Part shown: piece after piece, positions 42,964-54,091 of the stretch | How positions within the stretch are numbered: position 1 is the first letter of the stretch | Layout of the letters: the number at the start of each line of letters is the position of its first letter | Assembly: GCA_026399025.1 (NCBI GenBank) | Contig: JAPLRU010000090.1 | Coordinates: 46,881 to 110,880 of the forward strand | Length of the DNA: 64,000 bases | Direction: 5' to 3' | Source of the DNA: Methylobacter sp. | GTDB lineage: Bacteria; Pseudomonadota; Gammaproteobacteria; Methylococcales; Methylomonadaceae | The notes under the pieces: model-generated | Told to the model about the DNA's origin: nothing | Databases searched by the model: none | What the model saw: only the letters and a program-made list of their open reading frames with translations | Translations under genes and position numbers: made by a program

Positions 42964-43449
42964 TTGAACACAAACGCTTTTTGTCTTTGCGGCTCGGGCA
43001 TCGAATACGCTCACTGCTGCGGCCCCTTTCATTCCGGCGCAAAAAGGCCTACAACTGCGGTCGCTTTAATGCGTTCGCGTTTTACCGCTTATGCTTTGCA
43101 TAATGGCGATTATTTAGTGGCGACTTGGGACGCCACGGTGCGGCCGGAGTTAATCGATTTCTCCAAGGAAACGGTCGCTTGGCAGCGTTTGGAAATCGGT
43201 AAAACCAAAAAAGGCGGGAGCAAGGATGCTAAAGGCGTGGTGGAGTTTAAGGCGTATTACCTGCAAGACGGCGAAGAGTACGTTATGACTGAGATCAGCC
43301 AGTTCACGCAACGAGCGGGCGGCTGGTTTTATTTGGACGGGCTGGTTAAATCGATAGCGAAGGTGGGCTTGCAAACTAATCTGGGCAAAAATGCGCCGTG
43401 TTCGTGCGGCAGCGGTAAGAAGTTTAAGCGTTGTTGCGGGACTGAGTGA
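42964..43449 (+). CDS. ychJ: YchJ-family protein (UPF0225) with SEC-C metal-binding motifs at both termini
   Basis: N-terminal CLCGSG..YAHCC and C-terminal CSCGSGKKFKRCCG. TTG start. Confidence 0.8.
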   Translation: MNTNAFCLCGSGIEYAHCCGPFHSGAKRPTTAVALMRSRFTAYALHNGDYLVATWDATVRPELIDFSKETVAWQRLEIGKTKKGGSKDAKGVVEFKAYYLQDGEEYVMTEISQFTQRAGGWFYLDGLVKSIAKVGLQTNLGKNAPCSCGSGKKFKRCCGTE

Positions 43450-43456
43450 CGAAGCT

Positions 43457-43484
43457 TGTGGGCGGGAATTTAGTCGCGCCCACA
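43457..43484. terminator. Hairpin between the convergent ychJ and lipoprotein genes (possible bidirectional terminator)
   Basis: tgtgggcg...cgcccaca, an 8-bp perfect stem. No strong T run. Confidence 0.35.
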
Positions 43485-43502
43485 GTAGACTAAAACTTCA
43501 AT

Positions 43503-43910
43503 TTATTTTTCATCCTTGGTGGGTTCTTCCGACTCCCCGATCAGCGCGGATAAGCAGTCCATCTGACTTTCGGTATAGTTGGCATGGGCTTCCGCCAATT
43601 CTTTCGCCGAACCGAATTCAGTGCGCAGTTCGTCAAGCGATTTTTTAGGATCTTTAGACGAGGACAGCGTCAACATTTTGGTATAGCTACGGTAGGCCAT
43701 CAAGCGTTTGGGGTCGAGCGCGAAAACGCCGGGCATGTTGTTCGAGACAGTATCAACGACGCATTTAGCCATGCGTTCCGGGGATAATTTATAGTCCTTA
43801 ATATCTTTTTCCAACTGCATTTGCTCCAATACAGTTTGTTCGAATTCGTTTCTATCCGCGCAGGCGGGGAGTAATAATGCAGATAGGGAAATGAGCAGTA
43901 GTTTTTTCAT
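43503..43910 (-). CDS. Hypothetical lipoprotein (135 aa)
   Basis: Signal peptide with lipobox MKKLLLISLSALLLPAC. No known domain. Confidence 0.6.
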   Translation of the reverse strand: MKKLLLISLSALLLPACADRNEFEQTVLEQMQLEKDIKDYKLSPERMAKCVVDTVSNNMPGVFALDPKRLMAYRSYTKMLTLSSSKDPKKSLDELRTEFGSAKELAEAHANYTESQMDCLSALIGESEEPTKDEK

Positions 43911-43992
43911 GTCTGTGTAACCGTGTTATTAGTAAAAATGCAATGTGCGGCATTATACGCATGTAGCTTAGGTGCAAGGTAAAAAGGTTCAA

Positions 43993-44041
43993 GGTAAAAG
44001 GTAAAAGGTAAAAGGTAAAAGGTAAAAGGTAAAAGGTAAAA
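43993..44041. repeat. Heptanucleotide microsatellite (GGTAAAA)x7
   Basis: Seven perfect tandem copies read directly from the sequence. Confidence 0.95.
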
Positions 44042-44083
44042 GGCAAAAGGCAAAAGGCAAAAGGCAAAAGGCAAAAGGCAAAA
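44042..44083. repeat. Heptanucleotide microsatellite (GGCAAAA)x6
   Basis: Six perfect tandem copies directly abutting the GGTAAAA array, followed by the degenerate unit GGTATAA. Confidence 0.95.
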
Positions 44084-44096
44084 GGTATAATATTTT

Positions 44097-44138
44097 GAAC
44101 CTTGAACCTTGAACCTTGAACCTTGAACCTTGAACCTT
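44097..44138. repeat. Heptanucleotide microsatellite (GAACCTT)x6
   Basis: Six perfect tandem copies. The last unit overlaps the plsC stop codon. The reverse complement AAGGTTCAAGGT occurs at 43984-43995. Confidence 0.95.
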
Positions 44139-44895
44139 AATCCATCTCCTTCATTGCCTGAGTTATCCAGGCTTCCGCTTCGGCATTGATGTCGGCGGCT
44201 TTACGGCCTTGGGTTTCTATAACTGGACCGATTTTCAACTTGATTACGCCGGGATATTTTAAAAAACTATAACGCGGCCAAAAATCGCCGGCATTATGGG
44301 CAACCGGAACAACCGGAACGCCGGTTTTATGCGCCAGCATCGCGCCGCCGATGTTGAATTTCAAGACTTCCCGAGCTCCGGCGCGAGTGCCTTCCGGAAA
44401 AATCAGCACCCACAAGCCTTGGTTTAAATATTTAGTGCCTTGTTCCAGCAAAGAACGTAATGAGGCGCGCTGGTTTTTTCTATTGATGACGATGGATTTC
44501 AACGTGAGCAATGACCAGCCCCAAATCGGCAGATAAAGCAGTTCTTGCTTGATGACCACCGAATGAGGCGGCAGAATATATCTTAACGCCAGCGTTTCCC
44601 ATGCCGACTGATGGTTGCTCAAGATAATCGCAGGTTGCTGCGGATTAATGTGTTCCAATCCTTCCACTTCATAGGTAAGGCCGCAAAAAACTTTGGTCAT
44701 CCAACTGATGATAGCGCACCAGGCATGGCCGAGTTTCCAGCGTATTTTAAAAGTCGTCAGCATACCTAAAATAAGCAATATGCCGATGATGGTCGCGGTA
44801 GAGAAAATGCCCAAAAATAATAGAGCCGAGCCTATATAGTTTTTAGGTCTAGGGTCTTGATACGAGATATTTTGCTGCGTCATATAAGTTCTCAA
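44137..44895 (-). CDS. plsC: 1-acyl-sn-glycerol-3-phosphate acyltransferase (PlsC family)
   Basis: NHQSAWE (HX4D/E-type acyltransferase motif) and FPEGTR motif. N-terminal TM segment. Conserved position downstream of gmhB. Alternative start at 44883. Confidence 0.85.
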   Translation of the reverse strand: MRTYMTQQNISYQDPRPKNYIGSALLFLGIFSTATIIGILLILGMLTTFKIRWKLGHAWCAIISWMTKVFCGLTYEVEGLEHINPQQPAIILSNHQSAWETLALRYILPPHSVVIKQELLYLPIWGWSLLTLKSIVINRKNQRASLRSLLEQGTKYLNQGLWVLIFPEGTRAGAREVLKFNIGGAMLAHKTGVPVVPVAHNAGDFWPRYSFLKYPGVIKLKIGPVIETQGRKAADINAEAEAWITQAMKEMD

Positions 44896-45397
44896 AAATG
44901 GGAATGTTGAGATGAGGATTGTTGTCTAGGGTTTGTCGGCCTTTGCCGGTTTTGACCAGTATCGGGCTTGCACCGACAGCCTGTGCGGCTTGAACATCGC
45001 GCAATGAATCGCCGATAACCGCGATACCGCTTAGTTTTACATGATTGTCTTTGGCAAAGGCTTCGAGAAGCCCCGGTTTGGGTTTGCGGCAAGTGCAGTC
45101 ATCGTCAGGGCCGTGCGGACAAAAATAGATCGCGTCGATTGTTCCGCCTTTTTGTTCAACCATAGTCCGCATTTTTGCGTGAATGCTTTCCAACGTCGCG
45201 GCATCGAATAAGCCGCGCGCCAGACCGGACTGGTTGGTAACTACAACAACTTTATAGCCATGTTGATTGAATAAGGCGATAGCTTCAAGACTGCCTTCAA
45301 TCGGCAGCCATTGTTCCGGGGATTTTATGAAGTCGTCCGAATCGTGGTTAATAACGCCATCACGATCCAGCAACACGTAGCGGTTTTCGGGCATCAT
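44849..45397 (-). CDS. gmhB: D-glycero-beta-D-manno-heptose-1,7-bisphosphate 7-phosphatase (GmhB, HAD family)
   Basis: LLDRDGVIN (DxD HAD motif), the Zn-binding motif CPHGPDDDCTCRKP, and GDSLRD. Confidence 0.9.
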   Translation of the reverse strand: MMPENRYVLLDRDGVINHDSDDFIKSPEQWLPIEGSLEAIALFNQHGYKVVVVTNQSGLARGLFDAATLESIHAKMRTMVEQKGGTIDAIYFCPHGPDDDCTCRKPKPGLLEAFAKDNHVKLSGIAVIGDSLRDVQAAQAVGASPILVKTGKGRQTLDNNPHLNIPIFENLYDAAKYLVSRP

Positions 45398-45404
45398 TTA
45401 TATA

Positions 45405-45685
45405 GCGTTCCCGCACTGCTGGGGCGGTCCTGACTGCACTTCCACGCTGGAGCGCTCGTTTTTATACACAAATATTCGCAAGACATAGTCCCTGCAAGCG
45501 CGGCAGGCATTCGCGTAGGGCGCGCCTTTTATAGTTCCCACGCTCCGGCGTGGGAATTCAGTCCGCAACGCTTCAGCGTTGCGGGACGCCGGAGCGTCTA
45601 CCCCTGCATTCCCACGCCGGAGCGTGGGAACGATGCAAATGGCGATGTAGCGCAGCACATATGTGCCGGAGCGTGGGAACGATGA
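45405..45685. repeat. Cluster of REP-like palindromic units filling the glyS-gmhB spacer
   Basis: At least three GTTCCCACGC(N)GGAGCGTGGGAAC-type units (45535-45557, 45609-45631, 45667-45680 partial) plus cgcaacgcttcagcgttgcg and degenerate copies. Confidence 0.65.
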
Positions 45686-45703
45686 GCTACGGAATAAATT
45701 CAT

Positions 45704-47782
45704 TTACGACTGCAATTTGGAAATATCGGCGCAGGTCAAAAACTGCTCGGACAACAGATTCAGCAAAGCCAGCCGGTTGGCGCGCAAGTCAAGATCGTCG
45801 GTCATTACCATCACATGATCGAAAAATGCGTCGACATCATTGCGCAAACCGGCCAAACGGTTCAGCGTCGCTTGGTAATTACGTTGCGCCAGTAACGGTT
45901 TAATGTCGTCCGCGGATTGCAACGCGGCTTGTAACAACTGCTTTTCTTGCGCTTCAAGCAATGCACCGACGCTTGCCGCCGCTTCGGTATCCGATTTTTT
46001 CAGGATATTGCGGATGCGTTTATTCGCCGCCGCCAGGCTTTCGGCTTCGGGTAATTGTCTGAACGCTTTCACCGCTTGCAACCGCTGCATGAAATCCAAC
46101 GGTTCGGGTGGTTTAACTGAAATAACGGCATCGAATTCATCGGCGGTGTAGCCTTGGTCAAGGCAATAGCCTTTCAAGCGGTCGAAAATGAAATCGATAA
46201 CCCGGTCGGCTGTTTCGGCTTGATCGCCGGTTTGGCCTGCAACGGTTTTAATCTGGACACTGGCAAACTCGGTCAATTCAACGATATTAATGTTGAGTTG
46301 ATTCTCTATGATAGTACGGAGAATGCCTAAAGCGGCCCGGCGCAACGCATAAGGATCTTTGTCGCCGGTAGGAATCAAGCCGACCGCAAAAATACCGACC
46401 AGCGTATCTATTTTTTCGGCGATAGCCAGAATTTGCCCGGTTGCACTGCTCGCGGTCGGACTGCCGGATTGTTTGGGGAAATACTGCTGTTCAAGCGCCC
46501 AGGCGACCGCTTTCGGCTCGTGCTCCGCGAGCGCATAGTAGCGCCCCATAATGCCTTGCAAGTTGCCGAATTCGCTGACCATTTCGGTCATTAAATCGGT
46601 TTTTGCCAATAGCGCGGCGCGTTCGGCCAATTCGACATCGGCGCCTAAATGTCCGGCGATAAATTTTGCCAGATTGCGAACGCGTAGGGTTTTATCGTAA
46701 ACCGTGCCCAAACTCTCTTGGAAAATAACGCTGGATAAGCTGTCCACGCGATCTTCCAAGGTTTTCTTTCGGTCCTGGTTCCAGAAAAACTCCGCATCGG
46801 AAAGGCGCGGGGTGACCACGCGCTCATTACCCTGTTGGATGGATTTAGGATTGGTGCTTTCGATATTGCTGAAGGTAATGAAGTTCGCCAATAAACCGCC
46901 GTCGGCATTTTTAACCGGGAAGTATTTTTGGTTGGTTTGCATCGTGGTAATCAGCACTTCCGGCGGCAATTCCAGGTAGCGCGGATCGAAAGTTCCGGTA
47001 ATCGGCACCGGCCATTCGTTTAAGGCGGCAATTTCTTCCAATAAATCGTCTTCGATATGGGCAATACCGCTCACTGCGGCGGCGGCTTGTTGCGCCGCAT
47101 CGCGAATGATGTTTTTTCTTTGTTCAATATCGGCAATGACGCGGCCTTGTTGGTACAGGGCATCGGCGTAATCTTCCGGCTTGGTTAGGGTAATTTCTTG
47201 CGGCGCATGAAACCGGTGTCCTTGCGTAGCCGCGCCGGTTTTTAGGCCCAGGATTTCGGTATCGATGACCTTATCGCCGTAAAGCAAAACCGCCCAGTGT
47301 ACCGGTCTGACAAATTCGGTCGTGAAACTGCCCCAGCGCATCCGCTTGGCAATCGGCAATCCGGCGATGCTTGAGCGGATGATGTCGGGAATCAGGCTTT
47401 CCGTGGCTTGGCCTTTGACGGCTTGGGTAAAGCTGAGCCATTCGCCTTTGTCGGTTTTTAGGCGTTCCAATTGCTCGAAAGTGGTGCCGCAGCTGACTGC
47501 AAAACCCATCGCTGCTTTGCTGGGTGTGCCGTCCGGCGCGAAGGCCGCTTGCAGCGCAGGGCCGCGTTTTTCGACGGTTTTATCCGGTTGCGCGGTGGAC
47601 AGGTTTTCGATGAAAACGGCCAAGCGTCTGGGGGTGGCGTAAGCTTTGCTGCCGGTAAAGGTTAATTCGGCGGCGTTAAGGCCTTGAATGATGCCGTTTA
47701 ATAAAGCGTTGCTCAGTTTTAGCAAAGTCTTGGGCGGCAGTTCTTCCGAACCTAATTCGAAAAGTAAGTGTTGTGCGGTCAC
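45704..47782 (-). CDS. glyS: Glycine--tRNA ligase beta subunit
   Basis: GTG start. MTAQHLLFELGSEELPPKTL... is a typical GlyS N-terminus. 692 aa. Confidence 0.97.
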   Translation of the reverse strand: MTAQHLLFELGSEELPPKTLLKLSNALLNGIIQGLNAAELTFTGSKAYATPRRLAVFIENLSTAQPDKTVEKRGPALQAAFAPDGTPSKAAMGFAVSCGTTFEQLERLKTDKGEWLSFTQAVKGQATESLIPDIIRSSIAGLPIAKRMRWGSFTTEFVRPVHWAVLLYGDKVIDTEILGLKTGAATQGHRFHAPQEITLTKPEDYADALYQQGRVIADIEQRKNIIRDAAQQAAAAVSGIAHIEDDLLEEIAALNEWPVPITGTFDPRYLELPPEVLITTMQTNQKYFPVKNADGGLLANFITFSNIESTNPKSIQQGNERVVTPRLSDAEFFWNQDRKKTLEDRVDSLSSVIFQESLGTVYDKTLRVRNLAKFIAGHLGADVELAERAALLAKTDLMTEMVSEFGNLQGIMGRYYALAEHEPKAVAWALEQQYFPKQSGSPTASSATGQILAIAEKIDTLVGIFAVGLIPTGDKDPYALRRAALGILRTIIENQLNINIVELTEFASVQIKTVAGQTGDQAETADRVIDFIFDRLKGYCLDQGYTADEFDAVISVKPPEPLDFMQRLQAVKAFRQLPEAESLAAANKRIRNILKKSDTEAAASVGALLEAQEKQLLQAALQSADDIKPLLAQRNYQATLNRLAGLRNDVDAFFDHVMVMTDDLDLRANRLALLNLLSEQFLTCADISKLQS

Positions 47783-47804
47783 GATAGGTTGCCTTTATGT
47801 GTCG

Positions 47805-48356
47805 TTATAAGTTTATTAATTCGAGTTTGTCTGCATTATAAGGATGTTCTTTTAAATACCGTGTCCAATTAGCTAACAGGTTGATACCGAGTGCATTGTG
47901 TTTTTGTAAATCGCGGAATAAAAGTTTGAATTTTGGATCTTTCTTGCTGAACTCGTTTTTTGTCTCATCGATAAGTCCTTTTAATGTGGTCGGTAAATTA
48001 TAAGATTCTAAAGAAATACCCACAGCACAAGATTCATCAAGAATCCATTGTTCAATTGGAGGATGAAATATCAAGTAATGATTTTTGTCTTTATGTTTAT
48101 ATAATTTTAAATTTTGTTTTTTAACGACTAATTTAAACTCGGAAGTACGTGATAATGGCCTTCTATCTTGATCGACAATACCTACAGCAAAATTATCTTT
48201 CAATTTTCCTATCATTTCATCGACGACTTTATTGCAACTATGTTTGTGATTATAACCGTGCGCACTGCCAATTCTTTCGGGAGGTGCAATCGTTTCAATC
48301 AAGTTAGTGTCAATATAGCATTCCGGCATAACACAAAAATTGATATTAAATTTCAT
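47805..48356 (-). CDS. Small protein (~183 aa) with a TOPRIM-like Glu...DxD signature. Partner of the upstream ABC-type ATPase. Start uncertain (48356 or 48374).
   Basis: AT-rich ORF overlapping the ATPase gene stop. Hydrophobic strand ending in Glu (INFCVMPE) and a strand ending in DxD (FAVGIVDQD). The TOPRIM assignment is inference, not a recognised family hit. Confidence 0.55.
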   Translation of the reverse strand: MKFNINFCVMPECYIDTNLIETIAPPERIGSAHGYNHKHSCNKVVDEMIGKLKDNFAVGIVDQDRRPLSRTSEFKLVVKKQNLKLYKHKDKNHYLIFHPPIEQWILDESCAVGISLESYNLPTTLKGLIDETKNEFSKKDPKFKLLFRDLQKHNALGINLLANWTRYLKEHPYNADKLELINL

Positions 48357-49386
48357 CCGTAAATAGCTCAGCATTAAAGAATAGGTCTAGTCCATATTCA
48401 TACACATCATTTAATTCGTCATCAGTTAATCTTTTAATAACAGTCTGACCATCTTTAAAATCGGCCATAAATATTGCTAAATCAACGTGAGCATTTTCTA
48501 AGAAAGCATCCAAAATATAAGGGCTATGTGTGGCAATAAAAAACTGATTAGTTTCAGAACTTATTATTTCTTTTGCTATGTGGGTAATATAAGGCGGAAA
48601 ACAGTGCGCTTCAGGTTCTTCAAACAACAAAATCGAATCTTCGTTAGAAGCAATGGCGGTTTTAAAAAATATTATTCTTTGTAGGGTGTCGGCTATCGAA
48701 TAATAAGGAAGTAAAAATACCTCGCTATCTTTTATTTCCTTCATGATTTTTAATGCTTGGTTTGCGGTATCAAAAACCAGTTTCAAACCATATTCAGCAA
48801 AAATACCCGACAGTGTTTTTTTTAAGTGCTTATGCTCTTGAATAACATTAAGTAAATTTACTCCAAAAGGTGGCATAAGATACGGAATATTTAATTTTTC
48901 CAAAGCCGGATTATGGGTAAATTTATACTGTTTAATATTGTAAAATCCACCAAATTCAATAATGTCTAGTTCAAGATCATTATTTACGGTTAATTTGGAA
49001 TATGCCCCATCAATAAAAAGTGATATAACAAGCTGTTTATCAAAAAGTTGAATAGTATCGTTAAAGTTTTTATGATTTAGATTTTGATAGTCAACACGGC
49101 AACTGGGCTCATTGCCATCATCGTTAATTGCTACCGTAATTGGTGCATTAGTGTCGCCATCAAAAAACAATTCCGGCGTATTGTCGAATCTTACAAATTG
49201 TGTCAATTTTTTGTTTTTGTTAAGGCGACTATAATTCAGGCCAAATAATCCAATCGCCTCCAAAATATTAGACTTCCCAACATTCGGCTTTCCAATCAGC
49301 AAATTAATCCGCCTGCAATCGTTTAAAGTGACATCTTTAAGCGATTTGAAATTGGTAATATGTACTGAGTTGAAAAACGTTGCCAT
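48346..49386 (-). CDS. ABC/SMC-like AAA ATPase of the OLD / AAA_15-AAA_21 type (346 aa)
   Basis: N-terminus ITNFKSLKDVTL...LIGKPNVGKSNILEAIGL (Walker A), signature-like SIADTLQR, Walker B SILLFEEPEAH, H-loop FIATHSPYIL. ATG lies 12 nt after the glyQ stop. Confidence 0.8.
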   Translation of the reverse strand: MATFFNSVHITNFKSLKDVTLNDCRRINLLIGKPNVGKSNILEAIGLFGLNYSRLNKNKKLTQFVRFDNTPELFFDGDTNAPITVAINDDGNEPSCRVDYQNLNHKNFNDTIQLFDKQLVISLFIDGAYSKLTVNNDLELDIIEFGGFYNIKQYKFTHNPALEKLNIPYLMPPFGVNLLNVIQEHKHLKKTLSGIFAEYGLKLVFDTANQALKIMKEIKDSEVFLLPYYSIADTLQRIIFFKTAIASNEDSILLFEEPEAHCFPPYITHIAKEIISSETNQFFIATHSPYILDAFLENAHVDLAIFMADFKDGQTVIKRLTDDELNDVYEYGLDLFFNAELFTDEI

Positions 49387-49398
49387 GTGTTACTCGGC

Positions 49399-50304
49399 TT
49401 ATTGATTGCACATCGGAAATCCCAACGATTCCCTACGTTGGTAATAAACCTCAGCAACCGATTTAGCCAGATTCCTAACTCGTAACAAATAGCGTTGCCG
49501 CTCGGTAACCGAAATAGCATGACGCGCGTCCAGTAGGTTAAACGCATGAGAGGCTTTCAGCACCATCTCATAAGCCGGTAACGGCAAATTCAACTCGATC
49601 AGCTTGGTGCATTCGCGCTCATAAGTCTCGAAACACTGAAACATGAACTCGACATTGGCGTGTTCGAAGTTATAAGCGGACATTTCCACTTCGTTTTGAT
49701 GAAACACGTCGCCGTAAGTCACTGTGCCGAACGGGCCGTTAGTCCACACCAAGTCGTAAACGCTTTTAACGCCCTGCAAATACATCGCGATACGTTCCAG
49801 GCCGTAAGTGATTTCGCCGGTGATCGGCCTGCACTCAAGCCCGCCGACTTGCTGGAAATAAGTAAACTGGGTCACTTCCATGCCGTTCAGCCAGACTTCC
49901 CAGCCCAAGCCCCAGGCACCTAAGGTCGGCGATTCCCAATTGTCTTCGACAAAGCGCACATCGTGTTCAAGTAAATCCAAACCCAAATGGCGCAACGAAC
50001 CCAGATATAAGTCCTGGATATTGTCCGGCGACGGCTTTAACACGACTTGATATTGGTAGTAATGCTGCAAGCGGTTGGGGTTTTCGCCGAAGCGGCCGTC
50101 GGTCGGTCGGCGCGACGGTTGTACATAGGCGGTATTCCAAGGCTCGGGGCCGATGGCGCGTAAAAAGGTGGCGGGATGGAAAGTTCCCGCGCCCACTTCC
50201 TGATCCAAGGGTTGCAATAAAATGCAGCCTTGAGCTGACCAGTATTCCTGTAAGGCCAGGATGAGTCCTTGAAAAGTAGATAAGTCGTTGTTTATGCTGG
50301 ACAC
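49399..50304 (-). CDS. glyQ: Glycine--tRNA ligase alpha subunit
   Basis: [46 protein letters not shown]... is highly conserved GlyQ sequence. 301 aa. Confidence 0.97.
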
Positions 50305-50561
50305 GGTTTAATGCTCTTGGGCAATAAAAAGTCGGGGATTATAACTGATAAACCGGTATCAGGCATATCGTTAGTTGGCCGCGCACAAGTACAGCTGATT
50401 TCGCCTGATGACTTATCTATCCAAAACGAAATTGTTTATACTCGAACGTCATCAAAGCCGGAAACGGCGCTTTACACCGTTATCGGGATTTTGATGACTA
50501 TCCGAACAAGGGTTTACTTAACGTTAAATGGCGTACTTTTTTTAATAAAAGGAGAATCGAC

Positions 50562-51017
50562 ATGAACGATCAAGAAAAACAACGGGCTGTAGATATTCTT
50601 AATCTTATTATGGAGCTTGAATTGGCGGGCGTTGTGCGCTACACGCATTACTCGCTGATGGTTTACGGTTATAACCGCATTCCTATTGTTTCGTGGCTTA
50701 AGAGCAATGCCGATGAAAGTTTGATTCATGCCCATAAAGCCGGTGAGTTGGTTACTTTATTGGGTGGGCATCCGTCGCTTAAAATCGGCCCTTTATTGGA
50801 AACGGCTAAACATGATATCGGCGATATTCTAAGAGAAAGCCTGGAACATGAGAAAACCGCGATAGCCGCTTATTTTGAATTGCTGAAAGTTTCGGAGGGC
50901 GTTTCAGTGCTGTTGGAAGAATACGCGCGAGAGATGATTGCCGGAGAAGAGCTGCATCTTGATGAAGTGAATAAAATGCTGCGAAAACCGGGCGATGTAC
51001 AGCCGTTTAGTTCGTAA
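50562..51017 (+). CDS. Bacterioferritin-family (ferritin-like) protein
   Basis: 151 aa four-helix-bundle pattern with the ferroxidase-type ligands E..Y...E..H (ELELAGVVRY; ADESLIHAHK; LEHEKTAI; AGEELHLD). Confidence 0.78.
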   Translation: MNDQEKQRAVDILNLIMELELAGVVRYTHYSLMVYGYNRIPIVSWLKSNADESLIHAHKAGELVTLLGGHPSLKIGPLLETAKHDIGDILRESLEHEKTAIAAYFELLKVSEGVSVLLEEYAREMIAGEELHLDEVNKMLRKPGDVQPFSS

Positions 51018-51035
51018 GGCTGATCGTAAAAAGAA

Positions 51036-51151
51036 TTCACCACGAAGGCACGAAGAGCACGAAGTTTTATAAGCTTCGTGCTCTCGGCAACTGCTCCATG
51101 CGTTGCTCTACCTCCTGTATCCATACAAGTCGTTCGTGTCTTCGTGGTGAA
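51036..51151. repeat. Hairpin repeat (TTCACCACGAAG family) carrying a ~50-bp internal insertion
   Basis: ttcaccacgaaggcacgaagagcacgaag ... cttcgtgctc [tcggcaactgctccatgcgttgctctacctcctgtatccatacaagtcgt] tcgtgtcttcgtggtgaa. The same insert occurs in the copy at 63593-63730. Confidence 0.65.
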
Positions 51152-51181
51152 GCTTTTAATAAATGCGTCGATTGTCGGGAA

Positions 51182-53830
51182 TCAATCAAGCCCCTGATCC
51201 TGCAACAGCTTAACAAACGCGTCCGCCGGCACCGGCGGGCTTTTGATATAGCCTTGATAGGTGTCGCATCTTTTTTCCCGCAAGAACGCCAGTTGTTCCG
51301 GCGTTTCCACGCCTTCGGCCAGCACTTTAAAGCCCAGAATATGCCCCATAGCGATAATCGTCGCGGCAATTTCCATATCGTCCCGCAAGTGAGGAATGTC
51401 ATCGATAAAGCTTTTGTCGATTTTCAGCACATCCAACGGAAAGTGCTTTAGATAAGCCAATGACGAAAAACCGGTGCCAAAGTCGTCAATGGCTAGACGA
51501 ATGCCCTGCGCACGCAGTTTGTTCAAAAGTTCCATGACATGATCCTGGTTTTCCATCAGTCCGCTTTCGGTCATTTCCAGTTCCAGATACTCGGCCGGAA
51601 ATCCGGTTTCGTGCAGCACGGTAGCCACTAAGCTGCTGATATCGCCGCGGCGGAATTGCTGAGGGGAGACGTTGACCGCCAAGGTGAGCGGCATTAGCCC
51701 TGCATCCAACCAACGACGGCCTTGTCGACAGGTTTCCCGCAACACCCATTCGCCGATTTCCAAAATCAGCCCGGTTTCTTCCGCGATCGGGATAAAGCGG
51801 AGTGGCGGAATCAAGCCTTCCTGCGGATCTTGCCAGCGCACCAAAGCCTCGGCGCCAACGATGCGGCCGTCGGCAATATCCACCTGCGGCTGGTAGAACA
51901 CCCGTAGTTCGCCTTGTTCAATCGCCCGCCGCAGCCGCGTTTCCAACGCGATGCGCTCGCGGGCTGCGATGGTTTGGTCTTCGGAAAAATAAGCATAGCA
52001 GCCGCGTCCTTGATCCTTGGCCTGATACAAAGCGGCATCGGCGTGATCCATCAGCATTTCATAGCTGGCCCCGTGTTCGGGATACAGGCTGATGCCGATG
52101 CTGGCGCCGATTTGGACGTCGTTGCTTTGACTGAGCTGAAAAGGTTTGCTTAACACCAGGATAATGTCTTCAGCCACCCGTGCGGCATCTTCAGGATGGG
52201 CAATATCTTCCAGCAAGACCACAAATTCATCGCCGCCCAGACGTGCGACCATGTCGACGTCGCGCAGCCTTGCCAGAATGCGGGCCGCGACTTGTTGCAG
52301 CAATTCGTCGCCGGCGGCATGGCCCAAACTGTCGTTGACCGCTTTAAAGCGATCCAGGTCAAGCATCAGTAATGCCAGTCGATTGCCTTCACGGCGTTCC
52401 ACTTCGATGCTGTGTTTCAAGCGCTCCAACAACAAACGGCGGTTGGGCAACTTGGTCAGCGGATCATAAAAGGCCAATTGCTTGATTTCTTCTTCGGCGG
52501 CTTTGCGGGAAGTGATGTCGGAGAAGGACGCTACATAGTGATTGACTTGTTCGTTCGGGTCGTCGGATTCTTTCACCGCGGTGATAATCAGCCATTCCGG
52601 ATAAATCTCGCCGTTCTTGCGCCGGTTCCATATTTCACCTTGCCAGGCGTTGTGGCTATTGATGCTCTCCCACATGGCGCTGTAAAAAGATTTGTCGTGT
52701 AGCCCGGAACTGAGCAAATTAGGGGTTTTACCGATGACTTCCTGAGCGCTGTAACCGGTGATTCGGGTAAAGGCCCGGTTGACTTTGAGGATGACATTAT
52801 CGGCATCGGTGACCAGCATGGCGTCCTGCAACTCAAAGGCGGTGGCGGCGATATGCAGGTCCACTTCATCCTGCTTTTGCTTGGTGATGTCGGTGATGAA
52901 GCCGTGCCAAAGCACCGAACCGTCGGCCTGCCGCTGCGGCAGCGCATTGCCGAACAGCCAACACACCGGAGCATCGTCGAACTTTAAGCGATATTCCTGC
53001 CGCCAGGGCGTTAAGTGTTGCGCCGAGACTTTAAAGGACGTTTTGAACCGCTCCAGGTCATCCGGGTGCAAGGCCGCGAGTACTTTGCCAGCGTCTTCGC
53101 TGACTTCTTCCGGACTGACTCGGTAGATAGTTTGAATGGCTTCATTAGCGTAAGGGATGCGCGAACTGCCGTCGGGAAACAATTGAAACTGGAACACCAG
53201 CCCCGGCACCTGGCTGGCGATTTTCTGAAGCCGATCCAGGGCCTCCTGGCTGGATTGCTCGGCTTTTTGGCGTTCAATGACCTCTTTTGCCAGTTGCATA
53301 GTGCGTGAAGACAAGGCTTCGAACATCGACAGCATGGTTTCGATCAGCACCTTCATCGCGCCGCTCATTTCCTGATCGGCTTGCTCCTTTGCTTGGATTA
53401 ACGGTATGCCGGATTGCACCGCCAGCACGACCTTGGCCATGCGCATATCGGTATCCAGAATATGAAAGGCCAACCATTGGGTTAGGAAGGTGAGAATTTC
53501 TTCAATGACTTGATCCAAGGGCCTGAGGGTTTTTCCCCCCATAATCCTGTTTACAGTGGTCAAAAATCGCCGATGATCGTTTTTATGTTTGGTTTCCCAA
53601 GTATCTTCAGGAAAGTAGGCATGCCAAATAGCTTCTTCTTCCTGAAAATGGTAAATGGCGTATTCCGCCAAGTCGTTGAAAACATTATTCAAGGTGGGTA
53701 CGTCGGACTGATAGGCCAAATGACCGGCCAGTACATTTAACAACTCAACCAAGCGCTGATGCTGTACATCAATTTGAGGCACTCCGGTCTCGAAATTTTT
53801 ATTCCAAGGAAAAACTTCAACTGAATACAT
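51182..53830 (-). CDS. Bacteriohemerythrin-PAS-PAS-GGDEF-EAL c-di-GMP turnover protein
   Basis: N-terminus FPWNKNFETGVPQIDVQHQRLVELLN (hemerythrin-like). PAS regions. GGDEF (RLGGDEFVVLL) and EAL (EALVRW...DDFGTG) motifs are both intact. Start at MYSVEVF (53830). Confidence 0.88.
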   Translation of the reverse strand: MYSVEVFPWNKNFETGVPQIDVQHQRLVELLNVLAGHLAYQSDVPTLNNVFNDLAEYAIYHFQEEEAIWHAYFPEDTWETKHKNDHRRFLTTVNRIMGGKTLRPLDQVIEEILTFLTQWLAFHILDTDMRMAKVVLAVQSGIPLIQAKEQADQEMSGAMKVLIETMLSMFEALSSRTMQLAKEVIERQKAEQSSQEALDRLQKIASQVPGLVFQFQLFPDGSSRIPYANEAIQTIYRVSPEEVSEDAGKVLAALHPDDLERFKTSFKVSAQHLTPWRQEYRLKFDDAPVCWLFGNALPQRQADGSVLWHGFITDITKQKQDEVDLHIAATAFELQDAMLVTDADNVILKVNRAFTRITGYSAQEVIGKTPNLLSSGLHDKSFYSAMWESINSHNAWQGEIWNRRKNGEIYPEWLIITAVKESDDPNEQVNHYVASFSDITSRKAAEEEIKQLAFYDPLTKLPNRRLLLERLKHSIEVERREGNRLALLMLDLDRFKAVNDSLGHAAGDELLQQVAARILARLRDVDMVARLGGDEFVVLLEDIAHPEDAARVAEDIILVLSKPFQLSQSNDVQIGASIGISLYPEHGASYEMLMDHADAALYQAKDQGRGCYAYFSEDQTIAARERIALETRLRRAIEQGELRVFYQPQVDIADGRIVGAEALVRWQDPQEGLIPPLRFIPIAEETGLILEIGEWVLRETCRQGRRWLDAGLMPLTLAVNVSPQQFRRGDISSLVATVLHETGFPAEYLELEMTESGLMENQDHVMELLNKLRAQGIRLAIDDFGTGFSSLAYLKHFPLDVLKIDKSFIDDIPHLRDDMEIAATIIAMGHILGFKVLAEGVETPEQLAFLREKRCDTYQGYIKSPPVPADAFVKLLQDQGLD

Positions 53831-54091
53831 AATGCTCTCGCCCAACCTAGAGGCTTGGTTGGATTTTAGGGGGAAATTAAGATGACACGATTATATAGGT
53901 TTTAACGGATGCGGTTTTATAAAAGCTGATTTTTGCCGCGGCCCTTTAAACTAAAGGCGCATGTGCATTGCCGTTATCGCTTTGTTTTCTGATGCGTTTG
54001 CGTTTAGTGATAAAATGCACAAACCAAAACGTAATCTTACTTTTTTAGCCGAACATTATTCCTTGTCACTTAACAGCAGAAATTCACAATC

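Follow-up and report, generated by a model that had tools for sequence, protein, structure and literature searches.

A Two-Gene ABC-ATPase Cassette Between the Glycyl-tRNA Synthetase Genes of Methanotrophs: A Possible Defence System with a New Effector

The Cassette and Its Boundaries

In a 64,000-nt stretch of Methylobacter sp. DNA (assembly GCA_026399025.1, contig JAPLRU010000090.1, positions 46,881 to 110,880; hereafter the window, numbered from its first letter), the genes of the two subunits of one essential enzyme, the glycyl-tRNA synthetase, are separated by an AT-rich cassette of two genes. The first one encodes an ATP-binding cassette (ABC)-type ATPase and the second one a small protein. 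We describe here this pair, its relatives, and the junction in which it resides, and we weigh the reading that we favor, i.e., a defence-type system of which the small protein would be the effector.

All these genes lie on the minus strand, in the order glyQ, 12 nt, ATPase gene, 11-nt overlap, small gene, 22 nt, glyS. The upstream flank, glyQ (alpha subunit, 49399 to 50304), matches Pfam PF02091 (tRNA-synt_2e, 2.7e-151), and the downstream flank, glyS (beta subunit, GTG start, 45704 to 47782), matches PF02092 (tRNA_synt_2f, 4.2e-202) as well as DALR_1. The flanks are nearest to those of Methylobacter, with GlyS 91-92% identical. Pfam, PADLOC, and motifs assign the ATPase gene (48346 to 49386, 346 aa) to the AAA_21/AAA_15 ABC-type, with a putative role of sensor or motor. 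The partner gene (47805 to 48356, 183 aa), defined through its homologues, belongs to an uncharacterised family and is the putative effector. In the list of open reading frames (ORFs), it runs from 47805 to 48374 (189 aa); we revised its start to the ATG at 48356 (MKFNINF...) because the homologues begin there, which gives a 183-aa protein and an 11-nt overlap with the ATPase stop. From the glyQ stop to the ATPase ATG, the 12-nt spacer (49387 to 49398, gccgagtaacac) is too short to accommodate a promoter or a terminator. The 22-nt spacer that separates the stop of the small ORF from the glyS GTG (47783 to 47804) carries an AAAGG Shine-Dalgarno-like element, and an AAAGG-bearing spacer of 12-28 nt precedes the glyS GTG in most occupied Methylomonadaceae loci. 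An earlier reading, made from the letters of the window alone (the sequence-only reading), had given the same gene coordinates, the same two gaps, and overlapping co-oriented ORFs, all of which hold against the ORF list and the sequence.

The composition of the cassette is foreign. Counted over 300 nt at a time, its GC content is 0.30-0.34 across 47850 to 49200, versus 0.48-0.57 in glyS and glyQ; the entire cassette is at 0.326 and the 3-kb flanks on either side are at 0.513, so that the sharp compositional break first seen in spot counts is real. The same is true of the family: in our survey of 90 loci from genomes and assemblies (the genomic relatives being the best 80 of at least 239), the cassette is AT-richer than its own flanks in 89 of 90. 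As the sequence-only reading had it, neither promoter nor terminator is evident. Indeed, we found no terminator-like site in the 12-nt or 22-nt spacer, and promoter-like matches were at chance level (10 found versus 9.2 +/- 2.8 in shuffled sequence); a promoter or terminator proper to the cassette was rejected because these signals do not exceed chance. No direct or inverted repeats border the cassette edges, in agreement with the initial remark that neither integrase nor flanking direct repeats are visible. We rejected an integrase, att, or transposon mechanism, since flanking repeats are missing and the 12- and 22-nt spacers leave no room for it. An RNA-element reading was also discarded, since the Rfam search of positions 43000 to 52000 of the window returned no RNA element.

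The glyQ-glyS Junction as a Hotspot

We scanned this junction in metagenomes with a GlyQ-based search, which gave 80 gammaproteobacterial loci (each locus is designated by L and a number), with both genes found in 75. In 73 of these 75 loci, the gap between glyQ and glyS is of 8-129 nt, which bears out the initial statement that the two genes are normally adjacent. The gap is of ~300 nt in L153, and L092 holds ~2 kb of cargo. The L153 gap (L153:5867-6195) is too small for a cassette and might be a remnant or an unrelated insertion.

The window's cassette family occupies the glyQ-glyS junction in 22 loci. The closest metagenomic relatives of the window (L091, L093, and L095) have empty junctions, with a glyQ-TAA-A-ATG-glyS coupling; L091 is 92% identical to the window in GlyQ and 81% in GlyS. 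On the GlyS tree, empty lineages interleave with occupied ones. Occupancy thus varies with the lineage once the junction is aligned across relatives, as the sequence-only reading had wished to see examined, and other cargos are present in L092 and L171. We noticed that GlyQ ends in GFPMC(Q/N).. at occupied sites and in GFPMLTEQG(A/T) at the empty sites of L091 and L093. The GlyQ of Escherichia coli likewise ends in ...GFPMC..., and we dropped the idea of a glyQ 3' end remodelled by the insertion for this reason: the occupied form may be the ancestral one.

The cargo of L092 (GlyQ 90%) consists of an AAA_15/21 ATPase and a 303-aa protein matching PADLOC AriAB (1e-9), and relatives of this partner match DUF4435 and OLD-like TOPRIM (PF14491, PF20469). 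In a second genome, L171, a PARIS-like pair is wedged identically between glyQ and glyS. In both loci (L092:5911-7883; L171:2913-4906), an AAA_15/21 ATPase is associated with a ~300-aa DUF4435/AriB-like protein, and the AriB-like stop overlaps the glyS start. The remoter relatives of the L092 and L171 pairs stand alone. A third ATPase and partner pair lies in tandem, between glyQ and the main cassette, in four loci (L035:3318-4917; L022:3099-4704; L024:3207-4866; L028:281-1325). It associates an AAA_21 ATPase of ~360 aa with a ~181-aa partner bearing the motifs ILCED, VMIDDD, and RNIESWF, for which we found no Pfam or PADLOC match. The glyQ-glyS junction is, then, a hotspot for at least three different cargos of the ATPase and partner type.

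Other Insertion Sites of the Family

Wherever both genes are called, i.e., in most of the 90 loci, the ATPase gene is directly upstream of the small gene and abuts or overlaps it. Every pair of Methylomonadaceae (Methylobacter, Methylovulum, Crenothrix, Methylocucumis, and Methylomonas) is at the glyQ-glyS junction. In Bacteroidota, the pair is found between nuoF and nuoG, where the end of the small ORF and the beginning of nuoG share 8-14 nt; between phoH and purC (13 loci); after sufD; after metH; and between apparent rfbF and rfbG genes, the downstream one matching PF16363 and PF01370 (sugar 4,6-dehydratase) and the upstream one being named by eye. In Bacteroidales, it separates the B-subunit gene of a type IIA topoisomerase from the A-subunit gene (parE|parC-like). 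Some pairs of Bacteroidota are in loose, non-operonic settings, beside XRE-type helix-turn-helix (HTH) genes or a helicase read as type III restriction-like, and ~40% of the examined loci are not operon-embedded.

The sequence-only reading had entertained, as a speculation, a link between the cassette and tRNA charging. Nothing ties the pair to this process, because the same family occupies unrelated operons, and we rejected a specific tRNA or glycyl-tRNA synthetase link in view of the nuoF|nuoG, parE|parC-like, phoH|purC, rfb-type, and sufD sites. On the family tree, each insertion site corresponds to one monophyletic clade, which points to few and old insertions rather than to active hopping. 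A phage, plasmid, or satellite origin was rejected as well, since the GenBank phages, PLSDB, and IMG/VR gave no match.

The ATPase

In Pfam, the 346-aa protein scores above the threshold of both AAA_21 (PF13304, 1.1e-15, 58.9 bits for a cut-off of 27, aa 27-293 aligned with positions 1-304 of the 304 of the profile) and AAA_15 (PF13175, 4.9e-15, 56.4 bits for a cut-off of 32.1). The four nucleotide-binding motifs pointed out in the sequence-only reading are in place and conserved over the 75 homologues aligned: the Walker A or P-loop GKPNVGKS (aa 32-39, 49270 to 49293, minus strand as are the other features of the two cassette proteins, in columns at least 95% conserved), the stretch from the signature-like SIADTLQR (aa 230-237) through the Walker B/D-loop ILLFEEPE (aa 252-259; together 48610 to 48699), and the H-loop ATHSP (aa 285-289, 48520 to 48534), GKPNVGKS, SIADTLQR, LLFEEPEAH, and ATHSP all falling in columns conserved at 80-95% or more. 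Judged on its sequence, this protein is securely an AAA_21/AAA_15 ABC-type ATPase, since the Pfam thresholds are exceeded and the nucleotide-binding motifs are conserved.

Its placing in any one named defence family is not secure. Every top match in PADLOC is to a defence ATPase (AriA, AbiLi, ATPase-Toprim, PDC-M38A, HEC-01A, GajA, NsnB, and Old), in keeping with the OLD/AAA_15/AAA_21-type assignment first made, and all are weak. Two AriA models match at 1.3e-18 and 1.2e-17 (63-66 bits), mainly over aa 6-91; AbiLi at 3.1e-18 (64.4 bits, aa 5-309 versus 2-313 of 340); PDC-M38A at 1.1e-16, its score being close to that of AriA, as are those of ATPase-Toprim and HEC-01A; and GajA and Old at 1e-14 to 1e-15. 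In NCBIfam, the matches are far under their cut-offs (retron Eco8 effector, 2.4e-14, 52.9 bits versus 250), and among PDB sequences only RecF and the retron Eco8 OLD nuclease (3.4e-05) match, over the N-terminal lobe.

The protein also has a hypervariable insert (about aa 85-160, 48907 to 49134), a candidate recognition module. Among 19 members of the glyQ|glyS clade, its mean pairwise identity is 0.10-0.29 versus 0.8-0.95 in the lobes, and it is also the least alignable stretch when the alleles of L002 and L035 are compared.

The Partner Protein

The small protein has 69 close homologues, and an exhaustive profile search extends its family to 1,213 clusters at 50% identity with E <= 1e-3 (596 with E <= 1e-10), mostly in Bacteroidota and methanotrophs. 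In an alignment of 23 sequences, three motifs stand out: PECYIDT (aa 11-17, 48306 to 48326), with E12, C13, D16, and T17 invariant; FAVGIVDQD (aa 56-64, 48165 to 48191), with F56, G59, D62, and D64 invariant; and IEQW (aa 101-104, 48045 to 48056), with E102 and W104 invariant. Y35-N36-H37 and K133 are invariant too, which makes up an enzyme-like collection of acidic, His, and Cys residues. In almost every locus (about 75), PEC follows a short hydrophobic segment at the N terminus. The AlphaFold (AF2) model is of high confidence (predicted local distance difference test, pLDDT, 92.9; predicted template modelling score, pTM, 0.89). It shows helices only between the E12 strand and the DxD strand, then a hairpin and a fifth strand leading into the ExW helix, and finally a C-terminal helical bundle. 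The protein appears to be one folding unit, because the model of aa 1-116 alone is poor (pLDDT 61).

The sequence-only reading had seen in this protein a minimal TOPRIM signature. The E...DxD pattern is real, E12 and D62xD64 being invariant in the 23 sequences, and such a pattern alone does not discriminate between folds. The TOPRIM assignment itself did not survive. Neither the small protein nor 23 homologues match anything in Pfam, PADLOC, NCBIfam, or PHROGs, even at E <= 1; in particular, the TOPRIM, DUF4435, RloB (PF13707), DUF4276, and OLD models give no match to them, PADLOC gives no AriB, AriAB, or AbiLii match to the small protein at E <= 1, and PF14491 and PF20469 remain silent at E <= 1 on the window protein and 22 homologues. 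A profile search of all PDB sequences with the small family gave only two matches, both non-TOPRIM and with E >= 0.8. The PARIS and Gabija structures (8UX9, 8SM3) are deposited in the PDB, and OLD structures too (PMC11464382). A Foldseek search with the AlphaFold model reached at best E 0.19 in the PDB and 0.077 in BFVD, and the 50 best-ranked matches listed include no TOPRIM protein. Compared by hhalign with the two other partner families of the glyQ|glyS junction, the small family obtained a probability of 0.7% against the DUF4435/OLD-TOPRIM AriB-like family built from the neighboring cargo, and of 1.4% against the third partner family. The L092 partner, taken as a positive control, is recognised by the same libraries, as are its relatives (AriAB, PF14491, and PF20469; see above). 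On these libraries, the PDB profile search, Foldseek, and hhalign, all negative, we rejected a TOPRIM, DUF4435, RloB, or DUF4276 identity.

Could the pair nevertheless be a true TOPRIM system of the PARIS/AbiL type, in which the small protein cleaves tRNA as a minimal TOPRIM nuclease of strongly diverged sequence? The invariant E12 and D62xD64, each following a predicted beta-strand, would suit such a protein, as would the AriA and AbiLi models at the top of the PADLOC matches of the ATPase and the genuine DUF4435 PARIS-like pair at the same junction in relatives. The canonical TOPRIM core is of the beta1-alpha-beta2-alpha-beta3(DxD) kind. The model, with its purely helical segment between the E and DxD strands, is unlike it, every direct test has failed, and 'hhhPECxxDTN' recalls a PIN-type motif equally well, which shows how little motif spotting discriminates here. 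We regard this cryptic TOPRIM as unlikely. Membership of PARIS or AbiL, proposed in the sequence-only reading, is in turn unsupported, because the small protein fails all the TOPRIM-type tests and matches neither DUF4435, AriB, AbiLii, nor RloB. The small protein is a member of a large uncharacterised family that matches no described family or fold. Its conserved residues alone suggest a metal-dependent hydrolase or nuclease.

Allele Exchange and Selection

Two Methylovulum psychrotolerans loci, L002 and L035, illustrate how the cassette evolves. Their glyQ and glyS genes are 94-100% identical at the nucleotide level (mostly 97-100%), and their cassettes are 30-88% identical (mostly 50-65%). 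Of the two sharp breakpoints, one lies inside the final ~20 nt of glyQ and the other where the small ORF ends. The L035 allele groups with Methylomonas alleles, and the cassette and GlyS trees are incongruent. In the L033/L043 comparison, synonymous divergence (dS) is 3-5 times as high in the cassette as in its flanks. Single modules are also mosaic: at the phoH|purC site, L056 and L059 have identical small genes, ATPases only 67% identical, and flanks 94-99% identical; the ATPase of the window is 89% identical to that of L016, and its small protein is 89% identical to that of L011. The cassette is exchanged as alleles between strains. These exchange and divergence data indicate that the cassette alleles are older than the host lineages bearing them. 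The ratio of nonsynonymous to synonymous divergence (dN/dS) is 0.06-0.31 in the cassette genes and 0.01-0.08 in the flanks, which indicates that both cassette genes are under purifying selection and points to functional genes.

Purifying selection on both genes, the long residence within clades, and the translational coupling to the flanking subunit genes would also be expected of a domesticated accessory or quality-control module, serving the assembly, turnover, or stress control of the multi-subunit enzymes encoded by the host operons. We hold this to be highly improbable. The host operons are unrelated (aminoacylation, respiration, DNA topology, purine synthesis, and O-antigen synthesis), close relatives live without the pair, and the large share of loci outside operons does not fit such a module; moreover, the extreme allelic divergence, the hypervariable insert, and the AT-richness are atypical of housekeeping factors.

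The position of the breakpoints, right at the cassette edges, raises another possibility, i.e., a selfish element of the homing or addiction type that parasitises the subunit-gene junctions of essential enzymes. The nuclease-like partner and the ATPase would cut empty junctions or kill the cells losing the cassette, which would be retained without benefit to the host. An analogy is provided by mobE, a free-standing homing endonuclease gene that lies between nrdA and nrdB of T-even phages. As in mobE, foreign DNA is placed precisely between two subunit genes, with neither integrase nor repeats and with variable presence. The seamless insertion in the same orientation at glyQ|glyS, nuoF|nuoG, parE|parC-like, and phoH|purC sites, the failure to find an integrase, a transposase, or repeats, and the persistence of the cassette despite its foreign composition all go in this direction. 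The differences are, nevertheless, numerous. Pfam finds no HNH, GIY-YIG, LAGLIDADG, or other homing-endonuclease domain in either protein of the window, and the element comprises two genes, including an ATPase. Each site harbors a single deep, ancient clade, with no recent spread to new sites, and empty sites persist among close relatives. No co-conversion tract is seen, the flanks being 94-100% identical up to the edges. Finally, three unrelated partner families, one of them PARIS-like, share one junction, which a hotspot explains better than sequence-specific homing does. We give this selfish element little credence.

Comparison with Known Systems

The logic of PARIS, an ATPase with an effector, and the varied effectors of AAA15/21 ATPases have been described (PMC11464382). 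The window pair resembles PARIS in its layout: two genes read in the same direction abut, the first one for an AAA_15/21 ABC ATPase and the second one for a smaller protein, the putative effector. Its ATPase has a variable insert and AriA as top PADLOC match (1.3e-18), and relatives harbor a genuine PARIS-like pair at exactly this glyQ|glyS junction. The window pair differs by its partner, of 183 aa instead of ~300 aa, in which comparisons of sequences, of profiles, and of folds detect neither DUF4435 nor TOPRIM, and by its ATPase of 346 aa, versus an AriA of ~53-55 kDa (PMC11464382). PARIS is also often carried by P4-like satellites, while we found the window family neither on phages or satellites nor on plasmids.

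With AbiL (AbiLi/AbiLii; RloA/RloB), the pair shares the two-gene architecture, and its ATPase, of similar size, aligns nearly end to end with the AbiLi model, albeit with a low score (64 bits). The partner has no AbiLii or RloB (PF13707) match. Rlo genes, too, are known to sit within another operon, the hsd operon of type I restriction-modification systems; the host operons of the window family are housekeeping ones and not restriction-modification operons. The OLD proteins and the GajA of Gabija have related ABC ATPase lobes, according to PADLOC, NCBIfam, and PDB matches. They are, however, single polypeptides with a recognisable TOPRIM, whereas the window element consists of two proteins, neither with a recognisable one, and the matches are confined to the N- and C-terminal ATPase segments, far under cut-offs.

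Chromosomal defence hotspots show the same variable occupancy by differing, AT-rich systems, with alleles swapped through conserved flanks. The glyQ-glyS site differs in being located within the translationally coupled operon of one essential enzyme and in its cargo, which consists only of small, promoterless, co-oriented ATPase and partner pairs. In a literature search with little coverage of subscription journals, we found no description of this family, of genes between glyQ and glyS or nuoF and nuoG, or of defence systems in essential operons, which agrees with the initial impression that the location had not been described.

Neighboring Sequences

Several features around the locus were noted in passing. 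In the window, the glyS-gmhB spacer (45398 to 45703) is of ~300 nt, versus ~110 nt in Methylovulum (L001). GC-rich palindromic units resembling repetitive extragenic palindromes (REP-like), GTTCCCACGC...GCGTGGGAA(C/T), fill this spacer in both orientations and give rise to a spurious 101-aa ORF. Just downstream of plsC, two adjacent, perfect or near-perfect heptamer arrays, AAGGTAA x16 (43976 to 44087) and TTGAACC x6 (44095 to 44138), yield odd 'LPFTFYLLPF' minus-strand ORFs and could be phase-variable or serve as a regulatory spacer. Upstream of glyQ, on the opposite strand, a 151-aa ORF (50562 to 51017) resembles by eye a ferritin/Dps-type protein, and the motifs of an 887-aa ORF beyond it (51182 to 53845) suggest a hemerythrin-like/PAS/GGDEF/EAL signalling protein; both are ordinary neighbors. 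Other genes of the defence or toxin-antitoxin type occur in Methylovulum: a few kb from glyQS, M. psychrotolerans carries downstream a gene with SduA_C (Shedu-like; L002:10909-11718), and M. miyakonense carries upstream a HicA-type toxin gene with a small upstream ORF, a possible antitoxin (L001:2886-3300).

Interpretation

We consider it probable, if only by a little, that the cassette is a two-gene system powered by an ABC ATPase, sharing the logic of the anti-phage systems PARIS, AbiL, and Gabija/OLD and having a new effector, and that it resides at an operon-junction hotspot. The ATPase and its hypervariable insert would probably act as a sensor or as a sequestering scaffold. The role of effector would probably fall to the 183-aa partner, a compact protein that is most likely a metal-dependent hydrolase or nuclease, released or activated upon a trigger. 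We envisage that a rare ancestral insertion took place exactly at the glyQ|glyS junction of Methylomonadaceae, that the cassette came to be transcribed and translated within the glyQS operon, and that it was then kept and diversified in place, its alleles, and sometimes entire other ATPase and partner systems, being exchanged by homologous recombination. The flanking essential genes would supply transcription, translational coupling, protection against deletion, and homology arms. The junction may be a safe and constitutively expressed harbor, with no functional tie to the glycyl-tRNA synthetase. The tiny gaps, the overlaps with the nuoG and glyS starts, and the lack of promoter or terminator signal support a seamless embedding.

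Several points weigh against this system. The partner matches no nuclease or effector family or fold, and the words 'effector nuclease' reflect its invariant acidic, His, and Cys residues. The co-transcription of the cassette with glyQS is what we infer from the layout of the locus, and a role in defence is suggested by family resemblance, hotspot behavior, and evolutionary dynamics. The scores of the ATPase against defence models are weak (50-66 bits) and largely reflect generic ABC nucleotide-binding lobes. One old clade per site resembles long residence more than island-like flux. Finally, searches of GenBank phages, PLSDB plasmids, and IMG/VR did not find the family, while many defence systems, PARIS included, are common on mobile elements.

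With respect to what is known, the pair adds to an existing kind and is not a new category, because pairs of an AAA15/21 ATPase and an effector are well known and diverse (PMC11464382). Two features are unusual, i.e., a large partner family without known domain or fold, and a niche between the subunit genes of essential enzymes, into which the pair is seamlessly embedded in the orientation of its neighbors. At least three independent operons show this embedding, and one of the junctions, glyQ|glyS, is a hotspot for three different ATPase and partner cargos. A more ambitious proposal builds on these features: a widespread, undescribed class of promoterless modules, made of an ABC ATPase and a new-fold effector, would reside at glycyl-tRNA synthetase, NuoF|NuoG, and topoisomerase junctions, and the embedding would be mechanistically meaningful, or else the pair would be a new ATP-dependent homing or addiction element targeting operon junctions. 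In such modules, expression would come strictly from the essential host operon, and a phage-induced shut-off of host expression or damage to the locus would shift the ATPase:effector balance and fire the effector. This proposal is, in our estimate, a doubtful one.

Significance

If the favored two-gene system is indeed a defence system, its partner would provide a new effector family, of at least 1,213 clusters at 50% identity, for ABC-ATPase-powered immunity. It would also mean that bacteria tolerate, and keep for a long time, foreign immune genes inside the operons of essential multi-subunit enzymes. Such an operon-junction niche escapes the 'defence island' searches based on guilt by association, and we offer a simple search rule for it: to scan genomes for subunit genes that are usually neighbors and are parted by an AT-rich pair of co-oriented genes. 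For the genetics of methanotrophs, the expression of glyS probably needs read-through of a foreign cassette.

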